From Klebsiella phage HMGUkp2: a stretch of DNA of 64,000 nucleotides. Positions 1-63,622 of the stretch are shown here, one piece after another (position 1 is the stretch's first letter; each line of letters starts with the position of its first letter). A program made the translations under genes and the position numbers. Below the pieces are notes generated by a model, which saw nothing but the letters and a program-made list of their open reading frames with translations, had not been told where the DNA came from and made no database searches. The stretch lies in the sequence record PV683292.1. The stretch is one strand, 5' to 3'.

Positions 1-275
1 ATGCTATCTCTCAGGCCCAGAAGGCCGGGGTTAACCAATACTTGATGGTTGATTGCTCTCATGCTAACGCCCAAGGTTCTTTCTTGAACCAGGTTGCAGT
101 TTGTGCTGAAGCAGCAGAACTAGCGAACGTTCGAGGAATTATGTTAGAATCTAACCTTAAACAAGGTAATCAAAAGATTTCTACAGACCTTGAATATGGT
201 GTATCAATTACTGATGCGTGTATTGGCTGGGAAACCACTGAAATGGTTCTCCGTAATCTGAATAACAAAGGTTAA
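1..275 (+). CDS. 3' fragment (C-terminal ~91 aa; ORF open to window start) of a 3-deoxy-7-phosphoheptulonate (DAHP) synthase-like protein, AroG/AroF class
   Basis: Frame is open from nt 3. Translation ...LMVDCSHANAQ...GIMLESNLKQGNQKI...EYGVSITDACIGWETTEMVLRNL closely matches the conserved C-terminus of E. coli AroG (VMIDFSHANS...GVMVESHLVEGNQSL...AYGKSITDACIGWEDTDALLRQL). Stop at 273-275, 2 nt before the cd start. Confidence 0.65.
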   Translation, partial: AISQAQKAGVNQYLMVDCSHANAQGSFLNQVAVCAEAAELANVRGIMLESNLKQGNQKISTDLEYGVSITDACIGWETTEMVLRNLNNKG

Positions 276-277
276 AA

Positions 278-838
278 ATGAAAGCATCTACCTATCTTCA
301 AATCGCATACCTGATTTCCCAAGAATCAAAATGCTGCTCTTGGAAAGTAGGTGCGGTTATCGAAAAAGATGGTCGCATCATTTCTACAGGGTATAACGGT
401 TCTCCGGCCGGCGGAACTAACTGTTGTGACCATGCCGCACAGCAAGGTTGGACCAAGTTTATTCCTAATTCTGGGTCTGGCCGAATTTCAGGCAAAGGTG
501 GACAAGTTGTTCTGGCTAAAGAACACAGACCCGCACATAGTGAATGGTCTTCTAAAAATGAAATCCACGCCGAACTGAACGCTATTTTGTTCGCGGCCCG
601 TAAAGGTTCTTCAATTGAAGGCTCCACTCTGTATTGCACTGCATCTCCTTGCCCTGATTGTACTAAAGCTATTTCTCAGTCAGGTATTAAAAAGGTTGTT
701 TATGCGGAGCGCTATGATCGCTCTCCTGATGACTGGGCTGATATTCTGGTTGAAGCCGGAATTGAAGTTATTGAATATAACCGTAAGAATCTTAACTCTC
801 TGAACTGGGAACAGATTCGTAATTTTTGTGGTGAATAA
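278..838 (+). CDS. cd: dCMP deaminase
   Basis: 186 aa. Zinc-deaminase motifs HAELNAI and PCPDC; size and sequence similar to T4 Cd; position upstream of gene 31. Confidence 0.9.
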   Translation: MKASTYLQIAYLISQESKCCSWKVGAVIEKDGRIISTGYNGSPAGGTNCCDHAAQQGWTKFIPNSGSGRISGKGGQVVLAKEHRPAHSEWSSKNEIHAELNAILFAARKGSSIEGSTLYCTASPCPDCTKAISQSGIKKVVYAERYDRSPDDWADILVEAGIEVIEYNRKNLNSLNWEQIRNFCGE

Positions 839-1173
839 TGAATCTTAACGAATTCGACTCTATCGTAAGCATCAACCCGCCTATGCCAGAGCCTGTAGAT
901 GCAACTGAAAAATTTGCATTTATGCTCAAAGCTGCCGGTATTAATGTAATTGTTATCGGCGCTCCTTCGTTTTCTGTACAAACTATAAAACGTGGCGAGC
1001 GTTACAAAGTTGATATTGCATCTTTCAAGGCCCAGGATCTGGATCATCTGGTTTCTGAGATCGTGAAATTTAATCCGGATGTAGTTTATCTGCGTGAAGT
1101 AAAAGACTTTACTGAAATTGAAGGTAAACCTGCATACACTGTTCGCTTTAACTTTATTAAGGTAGAAGTATGA
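838..1173 (+). CDS. hypothetical protein (cd.x-position ORF)
   Basis: 111-aa ORF, overlapping stop/start with cd; position equivalent to T4 cd.1-cd.5. Confidence 0.5.
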   Translation: MNLNEFDSIVSINPPMPEPVDATEKFAFMLKAAGINVIVIGAPSFSVQTIKRGERYKVDIASFKAQDLDHLVSEIVKFNPDVVYLREVKDFTEIEGKPAYTVRFNFIKVEV

Positions 1174-1493
1174 AATTAACTACTGACCAAAAAATTGCTC
1201 TGCGTGAAGTTCTGAAAGTCAAACTATCCATGGGCGTATCAGATATAGTTTTCGAAAAAGCAGACGGCACTATTCGTACTATGAAAGGTACCCGTGATAA
1301 AGATGTAGTTTCTTCTCTAGTTGGCGCCGAGATCTATGAAAGTTATGTGAATCCTTCTAAGCCACGTAAAGAATCCACCGATATGGTTCCTCTGTTTGAT
1401 ACCGAATTAAAACAATGGCGTGGATTCAGCATTGACAAACTGATCTCTGTTAACGGCATGAAAGCAGAACATTTACTCCAATTTGTTGGCTAA
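1170..1493 (+). CDS. hypothetical protein
   Basis: 107-aa ORF, ATGA overlap with the upstream ORF. Confidence 0.5.
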   Translation: MKLTTDQKIALREVLKVKLSMGVSDIVFEKADGTIRTMKGTRDKDVVSSLVGAEIYESYVNPSKPRKESTDMVPLFDTELKQWRGFSIDKLISVNGMKAEHLLQFVG

Positions 1494-1496
1494 TCT

Positions 1497-1527
1497 GTTA
1501 TATGCTTTAAGAATGTTTTGATATTAT
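1497..1527 (+). promoter_or_regulatory. MotA-dependent middle promoter: MotA box TGCTTTA (1503-1509), 12 nt, TATTAT (1522-1527)
   Basis: Same TGCTTTA-N12-TA(T/A)(T/A)AT architecture recurs at 23486 and 62681; lies upstream of gene 31. Confidence 0.5.
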
Positions 1528-1557
1528 TATTCTATCCTAACAACAAAAGAGATAACT

Positions 1558-1887
1558 ATGACTGATTTACCAATTCGTGCTCTTGGTGAGTATGTTATTT
1601 TAGTGTCTGAACCTGCCCAGGCTGGTGAGCCAGAAGTTTCTGCTGGCGGCATTATCATTGAACAACGCCGCTCTCAAGGCGAAGTTCCTGAACTGTGTGA
1701 AATCTATTCTATCGGTGAAGATGTTCCTAAAGGTTTCGTTGAAGTTGGCGATCTGACTCCAACCCCTTTAGGCAGCATCAAACATGTGACTCATCCTTTG
1801 GTTGCGGCTGGTATAGCTAAAGCTAAAGATATTAAGCAGAAATTCGTCACTGTACATTATAAAAATTTGACGTGTGTTTACAAGTGA
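1558..1887 (+). CDS. 31: co-chaperonin for GroEL (GroES analogue) gp31
   Basis: 109 aa. [19 protein letters not shown]...[10 protein letters not shown] aligns almost residue-for-residue with T4 gp31 (111 aa). Confidence 0.9.
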
Positions 1888-1895
1888 TATAAATA
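1888..1895 (+). promoter_or_regulatory. candidate late promoter TATAAATA
   Basis: Exact T4 late -10 consensus in the 31/rIII intergenic region. Confidence 0.35.
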
Positions 1896-2024
1896 AAAGT
1901 ATGAAGTGATGTGAGAACTACCTCCAAAAAGGGCATGTCACATTAACTTCTATGCGGTGGAGATGCGTTAAGCCGAATGGGTCTTAAGGCTCCACCTTTT
2001 ATTCACCTCACTTGAGGTTCTATA

Positions 2025-2273
2025 ATGAAAGATACTATCAAATTTGTACTTGACATCCAGCGTCAATCCTGGAATAACGGCCACGAGAACTACGGCGCCT
2101 CCATCGATGTAGAAGCAGCAATGCTTGATCTGCTCGGTTATTTCAAACATCTGAACCCAGCTCAGAAAGCTCTTGAAGCCGAACTAGCTGCTAAAGATGA
2201 ACTGAAATATGCTAAGCCGCTGTGTGCTAAGGCTCATAAAGCTGTTCGCCACTTTGTGGTAACGCTGAAGTAA
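2025..2273 (+). CDS. rIII: rIII-like lysis-inhibition accessory protein (82 aa)
   Basis: 82-aa ORF, the same length as T4 RIII; sits downstream of gene 31 as in T4; GAGG RBS 8 nt upstream. Confidence 0.4.
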   Translation: MKDTIKFVLDIQRQSWNNGHENYGASIDVEAAMLDLLGYFKHLNPAQKALEAELAAKDELKYAKPLCAKAHKAVRHFVVTLK

Positions 2274-2642
2274 TTTGTACGCCCACCATGTGTACGCATG
2301 GGTAACGTATGATGTGGACGTTGTTGGTTATCCCCACGTAAAACATCCGAAACCAACGGTGATTTGCTACCAAAGTGCAGCTAGAAAATAAACGGCAAGT
2401 GCATGCTACCCCGAGGCGATGGCTAATCGGGAGTACGCCTCAAGGCCTATACATCCATCGGTGTATATCTTATCCCCGATAAATCGGACCCGGAACCTTT
2501 AAGCTAACGGTGTGCAACAGATAAGAGTTTAAACGTACCCCTTTGAGGGCTTGCGGGAGCTACAACCGAAAGAACTGTCGAAAGAAGTTGAACCTCGGAA
2601 GAACGTGCTCCCATGTATTTCTCCAAAATGGAAGACTTTATA
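2274..2642 (+). ncRNA. about 370-nt non-coding, GC-enriched, stem-rich region (candidate structured RNA or leader)
   Basis: No ORF longer than 27 codons in any forward frame. Stems include GAGGCG...CGCCTC, GCGGGAGC...GCTCCC and AACGT...ACGTT. Unusually long gap for a T4-like genome. Confidence 0.3.
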
Positions 2643-2825
2643 ATGGCTAAACAAGCAAAAGCAAAAGCAAAAACTGCAGTAAAAGAAGTTGTTGGTACCT
2701 CTAAACGCGCTGGCTACAAGCGTGCGTCGAACAAGCGTATCAATCAGACGGTTGAGAAAATCATGCGTCGGGCTCGTGCGGTTCTTCGCGATGATGCTTC
2801 TCGTTTTGGTAAGCCGAAGGCATAA
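2643..2825 (+). CDS. small, very basic protein (60 aa; MAKQAKAKAKTAVKE...)
   Basis: Lys/Arg-rich ORF followed at once by an intrinsic terminator; the alternative upstream ATG at 2613 has no RBS. Confidence 0.45.
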   Translation: MAKQAKAKAKTAVKEVVGTSKRAGYKRASNKRINQTVEKIMRRARAVLRDDASRFGKPKA

Positions 2826-2830
2826 GTTTA

Positions 2831-2856
2831 GGGACTCCTACGGGAGTCCCTTTTTT
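2831..2856 (+). terminator. intrinsic terminator GGGACTCCTACGGGAGTCCC + T6
   Basis: Perfect 8-bp stem, followed by TTTTTTGTTTT. Confidence 0.7.
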
Positions 2857-2872
2857 GTTTTAGTAGAAGGTG

Positions 2873-2901
2873 TTTACATCAGCTTTAGGTTGTGGTATAG
2901 T
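2873..2901 (+). promoter_or_regulatory. T4-type early (sigma70) promoter GTTTACA-N17-TATAGT
   Basis: -35 TTTACA at 2873-2878, 17-nt spacer, -10 TATAGT at 2896-2901. Part of a repeated 26-nt element TGGTATAGTACTCTTACACCAACAAA also present at 4374. Confidence 0.65.
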
Positions 2902-2930
2902 ACTCTTACACCAACAAACCGGAGAATAAA

Positions 2931-3296
2931 ATGAAAATCAATCTGAATGCTACTGTTAAGTGCAAAGACCATGACGGCTATAAAGCCCAAGTAGTTCATG
3001 AAGCCCAGTGGATGCTTAGCAAAGAGCAATTCGAACTGGTTTACTGTATGACTCCTGAGGGCCCTTCAGATGATTTCTCATGGAAAATTCGTTTGACTAA
3101 TTTCTTCACCGGTGAAGAGTATGTTTTGAAAACCCTTGTTGTTGGTAAAATCATTTCCGAGACTTACGAAGATGAAGACGGTTACTCAGAAGATGTAACG
3201 TACTACAAAAACGGCCGTCAAGTGGCTGATGACCTGATTGAAAAAATGAAAGCTAAAGGTCTTATTGATTTAACTCATTGGACCTTTATCGGTTAA
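2931..3296 (+). CDS. hypothetical early protein
   Basis: 121-aa ORF downstream of the early promoter. Confidence 0.5.
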   Translation: MKINLNATVKCKDHDGYKAQVVHEAQWMLSKEQFELVYCMTPEGPSDDFSWKIRLTNFFTGEEYVLKTLVVGKIISETYEDEDGYSEDVTYYKNGRQVADDLIEKMKAKGLIDLTHWTFIG

Positions 3297-3302
3297 TTGA
3301 CT

Positions 3303-3316
3303 GGGGCTTCGGCCCC
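3303..3316 (+). other. GGGGCTTCGGCCCC UUCG-tetraloop hairpin (copy 1 of 3)
   Basis: Identical 14-mer at 4778-4791 and 22815-22828, each immediately after a stop codon. Confidence 0.6.
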
Positions 3317-3338
3317 TCCTTTTGAGGAAATAGAAATG

Positions 3339-3866
3339 CGTAATTATGAACTGGATGCAACTTATAAGCTTTCCGACGAAGCGGTCAAGCGGTTCTCTGA
3401 AAGTAGCCATAAAGGATTAAATTACTGCCTGGCTCGTGAAATTGGTACTCGTCTTTGGAAGCCGGTTTCTCTCGATTCAAGTGGGTGTGTTCAAGCTATT
3501 GAAATGGTTGGCACCGGGCGAGTCATTGCACCTAAAGACCTTAACTGCGCTGATATCAAAGGCCGCGAACAATCATATGTAATGTTTACCTGTGGTGAGC
3601 TTGATGTTGGCACTGTTGAGCGGTACATTGAACGTAATCCGGTTCAGGTAGAAGTCGAGCCTCTGTATCTTGTTCTAGAACGTTCTAAAAACTTTGAACG
3701 GGCTTCTATTGCTTATCGCGGCAATCAGTGTGCTTTCACTCTTGAAGAAGCAAAACAGATGGTTGCAGAACTCTGTCTGATTGCTCCTGTTGAAACAACG
3801 TACGAGTTGTACAAATTCTACGGCACTGCAAAGCCTGTTGTTACCACCGTAATCGAAGTTAAATAA
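3339..3866 (+). CDS. hypothetical protein
   Basis: ORF 3297-3866; start moved to ATG 3339 because GAGGAAAT RBS sits directly upstream. Confidence 0.5.
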   Translation, partial: RNYELDATYKLSDEAVKRFSESSHKGLNYCLAREIGTRLWKPVSLDSSGCVQAIEMVGTGRVIAPKDLNCADIKGREQSYVMFTCGELDVGTVERYIERNPVQVEVEPLYLVLERSKNFERASIAYRGNQCAFTLEEAKQMVAELCLIAPVETTYELYKFYGTAKPVVTTVIEVK

Positions 3867-3875
3867 GGAACTAAA

Positions 3876-4352
3876 ATGGAACTCTATAAATTTGCATCAG
3901 AAGACGCTCGTCAGAAATTCGAACTCAGTAGCTGGGAAATCGATAATGCACTGGCTAAATTGCTGAAAGGTAAAATTTTTAGCTTAACTGAAAAGAAGGC
4001 TAATGGTACGGTTATAGCCATCGAAGTTGAAGGTGAACACTACAACTCTGATCGCCTTCGTAAAGAATACCCTGAGTTCGGAATTGATGAATACGCTGAA
4101 GCTCTGTTTACTGGCGATGAAATCGGTACATTGGTCGTTAAGGTTCCTGAACCGGTTGAAAAGTTCTGTGTAATGACTGCTGACGGAAATAGTGGGTTCT
4201 TGATTCGTGCTCATGATATGACTCTGGAACGGGCAGAAGAAGTTGCGGCTCTCTACGTACGCGACAACGAAGACTCACAGGCAATAGTTATCAAAAAGAT
4301 TTCGTCGTTTACTGCAAAGAAAGAAATCGTGATAGATAAAGTTCAATACTAA
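3876..4352 (+). CDS. hypothetical protein (paralog family with 4810-5289)
   Basis: 158 aa; shares NGTVIAIEVEGEH / GGNILAIEIPGGK and C-terminal similarity with the 4810 ORF. Confidence 0.5.
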   Translation: MELYKFASEDARQKFELSSWEIDNALAKLLKGKIFSLTEKKANGTVIAIEVEGEHYNSDRLRKEYPEFGIDEYAEALFTGDEIGTLVVKVPEPVEKFCVMTADGNSGFLIRAHDMTLERAEEVAALYVRDNEDSQAIVIKKISSFTAKKEIVIDKVQY

Positions 4353-4809: not shown

Positions 4810-5289
4810 ATGAACGTTACTGGCAAAACATTTAAACTGTCTACAGAGAAGTTCAACGAATACTTAAGTCGTTATAGTAAAATAGCTGAAGTTTTTGTTG
4901 AGTGTAATCCTACCAATTTACCATTCAAGGTTTTGTCTTCTGATGAAGGTGGTAACATTCTAGCTATCGAAATCCCTGGCGGCAAAGTCCTTCAAGCCTA
5001 TGAAGGTGAGCTTTCTGATTACTGGTGTATTTTCTTAGATACTGCGTACAATAAGGCTATTCCGGGTTTCCATTTGATTGAGACAGATCCCGTAGTGGCT
5101 CCTTCTGAAGAAGAAACCGGTTATTACGTTCTTACCATTAACAAAGACTCCAAAGCTATTTTGGGTCCTTTGACTTCTAAAGATGCTTATGAGTTCGCTG
5201 AGCGTCAAGCTCTTAACGCTGTTCCTGAAGTAGTTGTTCAGGTTCTGAAAATCGAAGCCACTGCATCTGTAGAGGTAAAATTCAAATGA
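4810..5289 (+). CDS. hypothetical protein (paralog of 3876-4352)
   Basis: 159-aa ORF. Confidence 0.5.
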   Translation: MNVTGKTFKLSTEKFNEYLSRYSKIAEVFVECNPTNLPFKVLSSDEGGNILAIEIPGGKVLQAYEGELSDYWCIFLDTAYNKAIPGFHLIETDPVVAPSEEETGYYVLTINKDSKAILGPLTSKDAYEFAERQALNAVPEVVVQVLKIEATASVEVKFK

Positions 5290-62705: not shown

Positions 62706-62885
62706 TACTACGTGGAGACAACAGTCTCAAAATGACCTCAAGAGAAGCCGGTGGCTTAAGCTCTAAAACATGGTGAGGTCTCTATTCAGAAAGTTCTTGA
62801 CACGATAATTTGGTGGGAAGTGTACAGCCTTCCTGGATTATTCGAGTGAAGCCCTCGTGATGGGTGGAGAGCTTTCGAAATAGGT

Positions 62886-62961
62886 GCGGGTTAACTTCAG
62901 TTGGTAGAATGACGGGCTCATATCCCGTTACGCGATGGTTCGAGTCCATCACCCGCCTCCA
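62886..62961 (+). tRNA. tRNA with CAU anticodon (Met or lysidine-Ile2 type)
   Basis: Anticodon arm ACGGG-CTCATAT-CCCGT; T arm GATGG-TTCGAGT-CCATC; 3' ...ACCCGCC-T-CCA. Acceptor and D stems pair imperfectly by eye (possible 1:72 mismatch), so boundaries are within about 2 nt. Confidence 0.55.
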
Positions 62962-62966
62962 TTAAA

Positions 62967-63039
62967 TGGGATATAGCCAAGTTGGTAAGGCCCCGGATTT
63001 TGATTCCGGTATGCTCAGGTTCGAGTCCTGATATCCCAG
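62967..63039 (+). tRNA. tRNA-Gln (UUG)
   Basis: Acceptor TGGGATA/TATCCCA; anticodon arm CCGGA-TTTTGAT-TCCGG; T arm TCAGG-TTCGAGT-CCTGA; T4 also carries tRNA-Gln. Confidence 0.75.
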
Positions 63040-63045
63040 TTATTA

Positions 63046-63128
63046 GGGTCGTTGGCTGAGAGGGGAAGCGACGGACTGTTAATCCGTGTCTTAGGACAAG
63101 GCAGGTTCGATACCTGCACGGCCCGCCA
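63046..63128 (+). tRNA. type II (long variable arm) tRNA with apparent GUU anticodon; identity uncertain (Tyr/Leu/Ser-like architecture)
   Basis: Acceptor GGGTCGT/ACGGCCC; 3-bp D stem; anticodon arm ACGGA-CTGTTAA-TCCGT; 13-nt variable arm GTCTTAGGACAAG; T arm GCAGG-TTCGATA-CCTGC; encoded CCA. Confidence 0.6.
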
Positions 63129-63545
63129 AATAAGAAGCGAGACCAAACCGGTAATGACCTTGTTGAGGCCTAGCCCAGATGGATGCGCACTCGCAAGTCG
63201 TCGAACTGACGTTCCCTGTTATACAGGTCCCTCATTGAAACCAGGTATATCACAACTTGAAGCGGCGCAGGAAGATACTAGTTATCTTTCGAGGTATAGC
63301 GATTCAGTTAATGTGTTAACAAAGATTATATCTGTGCACGGGTATATGAGAGCCATTAACGCTTATTCAGCTTTCCGGAAAGCTTGAGAGATTCGTATCC
63401 CTGCGAAAGATAATTACATGGCAGTCTAAAGAGATGAGTTAGAGGTCCGTAAGTAAATGCCGGGACCGAAGTGGATTGTTCCCACATAGCGTGCTATGTG
63501 TACTACATCAAGCTACTTGTTTGTACTCTTTAGACCCGGATTCAG
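63129..63545 (+). ncRNA. about 400-nt hairpin-rich non-coding region inside the tRNA cluster (candidate small stable RNAs, analogous to T4 species 1/2 RNAs)
   Basis: No tRNA cloverleaf; perfect palindromes AGCTTTCCGGAAAGCT (63373-63388) and CACATAGCGTGCTATGTG (63484-63502), plus GTCC...GGAC; the overlapping 111-aa ORF 63052-63387 runs through tRNAs and is not credible. Confidence 0.3.
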
Positions 63546-63622
63546 GGCCCTGTAGCTCAATCGGTAGAGCGTTCCCCTCATAAGGGAGTGGTTGCATGTT
63601 CGAGTCTTTGCCAGGGTCACCA
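63546..63622 (+). tRNA. second CAU-anticodon tRNA (Met/Ile2), with weak or aberrant T-stem
   Basis: Acceptor GGCCCTG/CAGGGTC (one GU); D arm GCTC-AATCGGTA-GAGC; anticodon arm TTCCC-CTCATAA-GGGAG; T region GCATG-TTCGAGTC-TTTGC pairs poorly; 3' A-CCA encoded. Confidence 0.5.

Follow-up and report, generated by a model that had tools for sequence, protein, structure and literature searches.

The first 275 nucleotides (nt) of a 64,000-nt stretch of DNA from Klebsiella phage HMGUkp2 (PV683292.1; the whole stretch is hereafter the window) encode the C-terminal end of a DAHP (3-deoxy-D-arabinoheptulosonate 7-phosphate) synthase. This metal-dependent triosephosphate isomerase (TIM)-barrel enzyme converts phosphoenolpyruvate (PEP) and erythrose-4-phosphate (E4P) to DAHP and inorganic phosphate, the first step of aromatic-compound synthesis. 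From sequence comparison, the segment is probably the C-terminal quarter of an intact type I-alpha DAHP synthase, predicted to be catalytically competent, that has lost feedback control and descends from a single capture. A broader reading, put forward tentatively since belief and doubt are nearly balanced, is that the DAHP synthase of T4-like phages is a naturally deregulated enzyme, in which one ancient capture of a Tyr-type gene would have been followed by loss of the off-switch (an N-terminal truncation together with P150I, Q151K, and S180P in AroG numbering), so that DAHP and chorismate may be kept flowing in an infected cell even with aromatic amino acids in abundance and the host aro genes repressed or silenced.

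On the plus strand, frame 3 is open from the window edge to a TAA at 273–275, giving 90 codons (read from nt 3) and a stop, and the 90-residue translation, AISQAQKAGVNQYLMVDCSHANAQGSFLNQVAVCAEAAELANVRGIMLESNLKQGNQKISTDLEYGVSITDACIGWETTEMVLRNLNNKG, corresponds to residues 241–330 of the 330-residue protein of related phages. A preliminary description of this DNA had recognized a DAHP synthase C-terminus open to the window edge from three sequence blocks, and all three are present: MVDCSHAN (fragment residues 15–22), ESNLKQGNQ (49–57), and SITDACIGWE (68–77). Each block carries one metal ligand on the plus strand, namely the His codon CAT at 60–62 (phage residue 260, AroG His268), the Glu codon GAA at 147–149 (phage residue 289, AroG Glu302), and the Asp codon GAT at 213–215 (phage residue 311, AroG Asp326), as assigned by alignment with Escherichia coli AroG, AroF, and AroH. 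The fragment matches PF00793 (DAHP_synth_1) at E = 7e-14 and 51.8 bits against a cut-off of 25.5, over profile positions 193–269 of 270, and the phrog_5045 profile at E = 3e-33. It scores 87 bits (E = 9e-25) with the NCBIfam aroFGH model TIGR00034, whose cut-off of 173.2 bits is out of reach for a 90-residue fragment owing to its length. In tblastn searches it is 97–99 per cent identical (E about 1e-53) to the annotated DAHP synthases of 23 Klebsiella phages. At 216–218, directly after the metal-binding Asp, the window encodes Ala, in agreement with AroG and AroF, and Klebsiella phages vB_KpnM_Clarke_MM3 and Marfa have Pro, like AroH; this is a polymorphic site beside the active site.

The window contains the C-terminal 27 per cent of the gene, about 720 nt of the 5' part lying upstream of position 1, and the remainder can be read from close relatives. 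The phage had been taken for a Tequatrovirus; it is a Marfavirus-like Klebsiella phage, T4-like, with positions 1–3000 of the window 96.4 per cent identical to Clarke_MM3 and 95.5 per cent to Marfa, and positions 1–25000 96.1 per cent identical to Marfa, a member of Marfavirus. A 993-nt coding sequence for 330 residues, annotated as phospho-2-dehydro-3-deoxyheptonate aldolase, represents the gene in Clarke_MM3, Marfa, VAC36, and CP-p-KP-21072. A longer N-terminus from an earlier start was ruled out by an in-frame TAA five codons upstream of the ATG in a relative.

It is extremely improbable that the gene is a remnant in this particular genome, or that the segment is chimeric with host DNA through misassembly. 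The shortness of the visible part (275 nt) and the position of the 5' part of this copy outside the window would leave room for either, but 23 independent genomes of Klebsiella phages show the fragment and its junction with the following gene, cd, in collinear order at 92–96 per cent identity. The differences that separate the fragment from Clarke_MM3 and Marfa are almost all synonymous (15–16 synonymous and 2 nonsynonymous), and a tblastn search with the full-length protein found 212 phage records with a homologue, of which 212 are near full length, covering at least 80 per cent of the protein. The composition of the fragment is also phage-like, at a GC content of 0.418 and a codon adaptation index (CAI, with the long open reading frames, or ORFs, of the window as reference) of 0.72. 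For the gene these values are 0.44 and 0.68, with a GC content of 0.35 at third codon positions, and the CAI equals the phage mean, in contrast to aroF, aroG, and aroH of E. coli, at GC contents of 0.52–0.53 and CAI of 0.54–0.59 in the same comparison. Among the Klebsiella-phage copies dN/dS is 0.02–0.05, and the gene is under strong purifying selection in these relatives. A remnant or pseudogene was rejected for all relatives on their full length and on this ratio, the 5' part of the present copy lying outside the window, and a host-DNA chimera or recent capture was rejected on composition, codon use, collinearity with the 23 genomes, and phylogeny. Neither of the two outcomes that the preliminary description had named as fatal to its reading, a gene remnant or a host chimera, was therefore encountered: the relatives are full length, keep their catalytic residues, and evolve under purifying selection.

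The metal-binding Cys and the residues that bind PEP and E4P are encoded upstream of the window, and were read in near-identical relatives only. When six phage proteins were aligned with E. coli AroG, AroF, and AroH, all four metal ligands (AroG C61, H268, E302, and D326) were found to be kept, the Cys in all relatives and the other three in the window itself, as were the PEP-binding residues R92, K97, E143, G163, A164, R165, K186, and R234 and the KPRTT motif typical of DAHP synthases. Ten positions (C61, R92, K97, R99, R165, K186, R234, H268, E302, and D326) are invariant in 129 of 129 aligned sequences. A full-length relative, 96 per cent identical, scores 427.8 bits with the aroFGH equivalog model TIGR00034 (cut-off 173.2), 454.5 with NF009395 (cut-off 343), and E = 3e-165 (3.4e-165) with phrog_5045, and a phmmer search of the PDB gives matches to two E. 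coli enzymes, AroF (6agm) at E = 3.5e-98 and AroG at E of about 3e-93. The AlphaFold2 model of the pzk-kv8 protein, which is 98.9 per cent identical to the fragment, has a mean predicted local distance difference test score of 93.8 and a predicted template modelling (TM) score of 0.92, and predicts for this relative a complete (beta/alpha)8 barrel with type I-alpha decorations. Foldseek superimposes the model on the DAHP synthases of E. coli (AroG), Neisseria meningitidis, and yeast (1kfl, 1qr7, 4hso, and 1oab) with TM-scores of 0.94–0.96 and root-mean-square deviations of 1.3–1.6 Å.

These results bear on whether the protein might be a neofunctionalized or moonlighting member of the fold, acting on another substrate in the manner of 3-deoxy-D-manno-octulosonate 8-phosphate (KDO8P) synthase or in a non-catalytic role. 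PF00793 does also span KDO8P synthases, and the full-length relative falls below the cut-offs of the isozyme-specific families for AroG (NF006723, 365.7 bits versus 568) and AroH (NF009396, 380.5 versus 463). However, all metal-, PEP-, and E4P-binding residues are invariant, the aroFGH equivalog cut-off is exceeded by 250 bits, and the KPRTT motif and best sequence and structure matches are those of DAHP synthases and not of KdsA, the KDO8P synthase, which makes such a role very improbable. A catalytically dead or moonlighting protein is likewise unlikely because the active-site residues are kept, the equivalog score is high, and the predicted fold is DAHP synthase-like. Thus, where the preliminary description offered an auxiliary metabolic gene (AMG) or a moonlighting derivative, the former has held up, in the shape of an intact 330-residue protein in relatives that belongs to phrog_5045, and the latter has not.

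The phage proteins form a distinct lineage. A database search returned 24 phage-type clusters at 56–97 per cent identity and 319–343 residues, past which there was a sharp drop to bacterial proteins at 51–54 per cent identity, all but four of them 345–374 residues long. Neighbour joining of 129 sequences places the phage proteins in one clade (bootstrap 199/200), within which identities across genera are 56–76 per cent, compared with 44–52 per cent to AroF, AroG, and AroH, and by distance AroG and AroH are farther from this clade than are AroF-like, Gly211-type enzymes. The database step, the single clade, and the proximity to AroF-like enzymes point to a single old capture, after which the gene was inherited among T4-like phages. 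The probable source is a bacterial gene of Tyr type (AroF-like), which a T4-like lineage would have acquired once and then kept at a single fixed site immediately upstream of cd.

Three further database matches were considered as independent acquisitions and set aside. The match in ‘Acinetobacter phage MD-2021a’ (CAKLQF020000009.1) is flanked by cobS, histidine phosphatase, and alpha-ribazole phosphatase (phpB) genes on a bacterial-looking contig; the matches in ‘Bacteriophage sp.’ records are at 32–34 per cent identity, unverified, and unannotated; and that in ‘Salmonella phage S.Kent 1-2-1’ lies in an unannotated record of 2.4 kb. In addition, NCBI lists as ‘3-deoxy-7-phosphoheptulonate synthase [Escherichia coli]’ a cluster of 164 sequences with the phage pocket signature described below, 66 per cent identity to the query, and a largest contig of 170,875 bp; these most likely come from T4-like phages whose DNA was entered as that of the host.

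The phage clade departs from its bacterial relatives at the site of feedback control. The survey of the pocket covered 30 phage-clade sequences, made up of the 24 database clusters and six reference phage proteins, with AroG numbering throughout. All 30 begin about 8–10 residues later than AroG, AroF, and AroH, and so are missing the segment with AroG Asp6 and Asp7, which presumably line the Phe site of the neighbouring subunit in AroG. Within the pocket the phage sequences have Ile150 (29/30), Lys or Arg151, Ile175, Pro180, and Tyr209 (30/30 each), whereas the 96 nearest bacterial clusters have Pro150 in 92, Gln or Glu151 in 95, Ser180 in 95, and Phe209 in all 96. The canonical pocket for aromatic amino acids (N-terminal segment, P150, Q151, S180, and F209) is thus absent from the phage clade. 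The type I-alpha assignment stands, since the catalytic family is not defined by feedback regulation. The phage proteins share with AroF and the nearest bacterial relatives a Gly at AroG position 211. Changes near the N-terminus of AroF (N8K and deletion of Ile11) are also known to relieve inhibition.

The positions concerned have been well characterized in the host enzymes. Crystal structures of AroG with Phe and AroF with Tyr show the inhibitor main chain bound by Gln151/152 and Ser180/181 through their side chains, AroG P150L and D146N are completely resistant to Phe, and S180F, L175D, L179A, F209A/S, and V221A are also resistant (PMC9529685). Given the loss of both polar inhibitor anchors, of the critical proline, and of some of the N-terminal lid, with the active site untouched, the phage enzyme is probably insensitive to feedback by Phe and Tyr. 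An examination of the active site and the Phe/Tyr site, as the preliminary description had suggested, therefore finds the first conserved and the second replaced.

The gene is widespread, and the suggestion that it would be unusual among T4-like phages was not borne out once other genomes were searched. The 212 records are nearly all from T4-like phages and divide by organism name into Escherichia (125), Klebsiella (24), Shigella (12), Proteus (7), Serratia (6), Enterobacter (4), and others. The gene is already known at the level of annotation, in about 200 T4-like genomes (Marfavirus, Mosigvirus, Kanagawavirus, Winklervirus, Bragavirus, and other T4-like phages of Enterobacterales), and as a catalogued AMG family, which PHROGs files (as phrog_5045) under ‘moron, auxiliary metabolic gene and host takeover’. 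It has been mentioned as an annotation in phage phiC120 (PMC8022965), and other mentions, in AMG lists from viromes, are likewise at the annotation level. The genomic slot is common to five genera, Marfavirus, Mosigvirus (JS09), Kanagawavirus (CIP9), Winklervirus (CHI14), and Bragavirus (PM2), and reads pseT, small cd.x ORFs, DAHP synthase, zero to two small ORFs, cd, 31.1, 31, and rIII. The preliminary description had assigned the pseT.x ORFs to this position in T4; in T4 and RB69 the slot between pseT and cd is taken up by the cd.x ORFs, and the pseT.x ORFs are on the other side of pseT.

Such an enzyme could be useful to a lytic phage. Host DAHP synthases are repressed and feedback-inhibited when aromatic amino acids are available, and T4-like phages shut off host transcription. 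An unregulated phage DAHP synthase expressed from the early region would be active after this shut-off, and it is possible that the entry of carbon into the shikimate pathway would be kept up during infection regardless of the levels of Phe, Tyr, and Trp. The pay-off might consist of aromatic amino acids for phage protein synthesis, or of chorismate-derived cofactors (para-aminobenzoate, or pABA, and folate), which would be consumed by phage thymidylate and hydroxymethyl-dCMP synthesis. The location beside cd fits the second option weakly.

Several observations weigh against the preferred reading of a deregulated enzyme, and some of them would suit a different reading, in which the phage protein is an ordinary extra DAHP synthase that adds dosage and is still regulated, its altered pocket binding Tyr, another aromatic compound, or a chorismate-derived effector. 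The regulatory beta-hairpin (AroG beta6a/6b) is still there in the AlphaFold2 model and Gly211 is retained. The pocket residues are strictly conserved within the phage clade, which could mean that the pocket is still used and might bind something else, and the phage substitutions (Ile, Lys, and Pro) differ from those of the characterized resistant mutants, so that a different effector could be accommodated. Across 150 diverse representatives of the family, P150 is found in 80, Q151 in 81, and S180 in 92 (with Pro in 23), and 71 of the 150 deviate at two or more of four pocket positions. Because these positions vary so widely among bacterial members, some of which may be regulated, a non-canonical pocket is evidently frequent in the family, with a functional meaning that is not the same throughout. 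The idea that the signature is unique to phages was rejected on these grounds, although it does separate the clade from the 96 nearest bacterial clusters, and the exact I-K-P-Y combination occurs in 0 of the 150 representatives; the change is specific to the clade with respect to its nearest bacterial relatives, yet no new kind of change.

Also on this side of the balance, RB69 (NC_004928.1, 133742–134502) has the same layout without the DAHP synthase gene, cd.2 abutting cd, so that at least some relatives can do without the gene. The literature searched yielded no study of a phage DAHP synthase by biochemical or genetic means, most subscription-journal papers being outside the reach of that search. 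Finally, with three quarters of the gene (its 5' part) outside the window, we infer the intactness of this copy from its relatives. Even so, a still-regulated enzyme is judged unlikely: Q151 and S180, the polar anchors of the inhibitor main chain, are both replaced, as is Pro150, for which the single change P150L suffices to abolish inhibition, and the N-terminal segment with Asp6 and Asp7 is missing. JS09 and many other records of Mosigvirus-like phages of E. coli and Shigella have the gene in the exact slot that is empty in RB69, and the gene is thus accessory even within Mosigvirus, since RB69 keeps the layout without it. This contrast between RB69 and JS09-type records is a natural presence/absence polymorphism that could be used for functional comparison.

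A separate possibility is that the enzyme serves as a carbon-flux device, in which an unregulated DAHP synthase would act as an irreversible sink for E4P (and PEP) and pull transketolase and transaldolase toward pentose phosphates for nucleotides and, in many of these phages, for the arabinose modification of DNA. The position of the gene within the early region of nucleotide metabolism, beside cd, agrees with this, and there is circumstantial agreement in that carriers include phages with arabinosylated cytosine (reported for HY126, and predicted by homology for JS09, Shf125875, and CHI14) and that the arabinose has been proposed to derive from ribulose-5-phosphate. However, RB69 DNA is arabinosylated without a DAHP synthase gene, the published arabinose pathway needs no DAHP synthase, and the co-occurrence may reflect shared ancestry. 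This explanation is accordingly regarded as quite improbable, and a direct link to arabinosylated-cytosine modification was rejected, given that RB69, where cd.2 abuts cd, is modified without the gene and that the pathway as published has no need of the enzyme.

In the preferred and probable reading, that of a deregulated DAHP synthase, the gene is most likely co-transcribed with cd. The gene had been described as co-oriented with cd and ending 2 nt before it, and this is exactly the arrangement found: the stop at 273–275 is separated by a 2-nt spacer from the cd ATG at 278, and cd (plus strand, 278–838, 186 residues) is a dCMP deaminase gene by its match to PF00383 (E = 5e-27) and by the annotations of relatives, and anchors the conserved slot. 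A likely ribosome-binding site for cd, AAAGG at 267–271 of the plus strand, is situated within the last DAHP synthase codons, 6 nt before the cd ATG, and the Marfa record annotates a ribosome-binding site at the equivalent place. This arrangement is compatible with co-transcription and translational coupling of the two genes, and it is from the 2-nt spacing only that co-transcription is proposed. On the other hand, a scan for promoters and terminators upstream of the gene in a relative gave match counts not above those of shuffled controls; the sole plausible sigma-70-like site in the scan fell between genes, at a distance of three small ORFs upstream of the DAHP synthase gene.

A GGGC-TTCG-GCCC hairpin with a UUCG tetraloop was observed at 4240–4251 of Clarke_MM3, outside the window, where it directly follows the stop of the small ORF ahead of the DAHP synthase gene, 31 nt upstream of the ATG of that gene. 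It could be an RNA-stability or attenuator element, and the simple terminator scan gave no call at this hairpin.

Elsewhere in the window, two small ORFs on the plus strand (838–1173 and 1170–1493) occupy the interval between cd and the gene 31 homologue. The second encodes 107 residues with a WYL_2 Sm-like SH3 domain (PF10902, E = 5.5e-16), and the first has only a B12-binding-like match at E = 0.003, below the cut-off. Three adjoining hypothetical ORFs of 158–189 residues at 3297–3866, 3876–4352, and 4810–5289 of the plus strand have borderline pairwise similarity (BLASTP E = 0.013 and 0.077), and could be very distant paralogues or alike by chance. Four tRNA genes, for Met(CAT), Gln(TTG), Asn(GTT), and a second Met(CAT), form a cluster at 62885–63622 of the plus strand, on which ARAGORN and Rfam agree. 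With regard to the wider enzyme family, some representatives are about 700–800 residues long and contain two DAHP synthase matches (e.g. in two stretches of a 799-residue protein) or fusions to other domains, such that tandem or fused forms of the enzyme exist in metagenomes.

The gene itself is not new, and the residual interest lies in its function and in the consistently rebuilt feedback pocket, which is possibly a new lead. An enzyme for the first shikimate step, retained by strictly lytic phages under strong purifying selection and with its feedback pocket consistently rebuilt, offers a cheaply testable case of a phage overriding a metabolic control point of its host. If it is indeed deregulated, the phage enzyme would be a natural counterpart of the feedback-resistant aroG and aroF alleles of metabolic engineering, and could provide a ready-made feedback-resistant DAHP synthase for the bioproduction of aromatic compounds. 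In the infected cell it could feed the folate- and pABA-dependent synthesis of deoxynucleoside triphosphates, or drain E4P toward pentose-phosphate supply. The carriers, T4-like phages of Klebsiella, E. coli, Enterobacter, and Proteus, are common candidates for phage therapy, and any effect of this AMG on host metabolism would therefore be of some practical relevance.

The closest known systems are the phrog_5045 DAHP synthases of Marfa (gp197, YP_009850411.1), Clarke_MM3 (XNS48489.1), and Escherichia phage JS09 (YP_009037555.1), which are the same gene. The fragment has 97.8–98.9 per cent protein identity with the Klebsiella phage copies, with slot, length, and active site alike, and the Ala in place of Pro after the metal-binding Asp and the few synonymous changes that distinguish it from Marfa and Clarke_MM3 make no material difference. 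At a greater distance, E. coli AroF (Tyr-sensitive, 6AGM) and AroG (Phe-sensitive, 1KFL) have the type I-alpha fold in common with the phage enzyme, 47–52 per cent identity, and identical metal-, PEP-, and E4P-binding residues; the predicted phage fold has a TM-score of 0.96 to AroG structures, and Gly211 is shared with AroF. The phage protein differs from both in an N-terminus that is shorter by about 8–10 residues and in short deletions toward the C-terminal side (330 residues versus 350–356), as well as in the pocket, where P150 is replaced by I, Q151 by K, S180 by P, L/M175 by I, and F209 by Y.

A functional parallel may be found in feedback-resistant AroG (P150L, D146N, S180F, L175D, and F209A), in that positions 150, 175, 180, and 209 of the pocket are changed and the active site is untouched. 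Unlike these mutants, the phage proteins have Ile, Ile, Pro, and Tyr at the four positions, to which Q151K and the N-terminal truncation are added, all of them fixed clade-wide, and their resistance is predicted from sequence. Classical AMGs that bypass host bottleneck enzymes include talC and CP12 of cyanophages and the nucleotide-precursor enzymes cd, td, and frd of T4. Like them, the phage DAHP synthase is a host-derived, pathway-controlling enzyme carried by a lytic phage among early metabolism genes; it differs in acting at the entry to the shikimate pathway, where the benefit to the phage is hypothetical.

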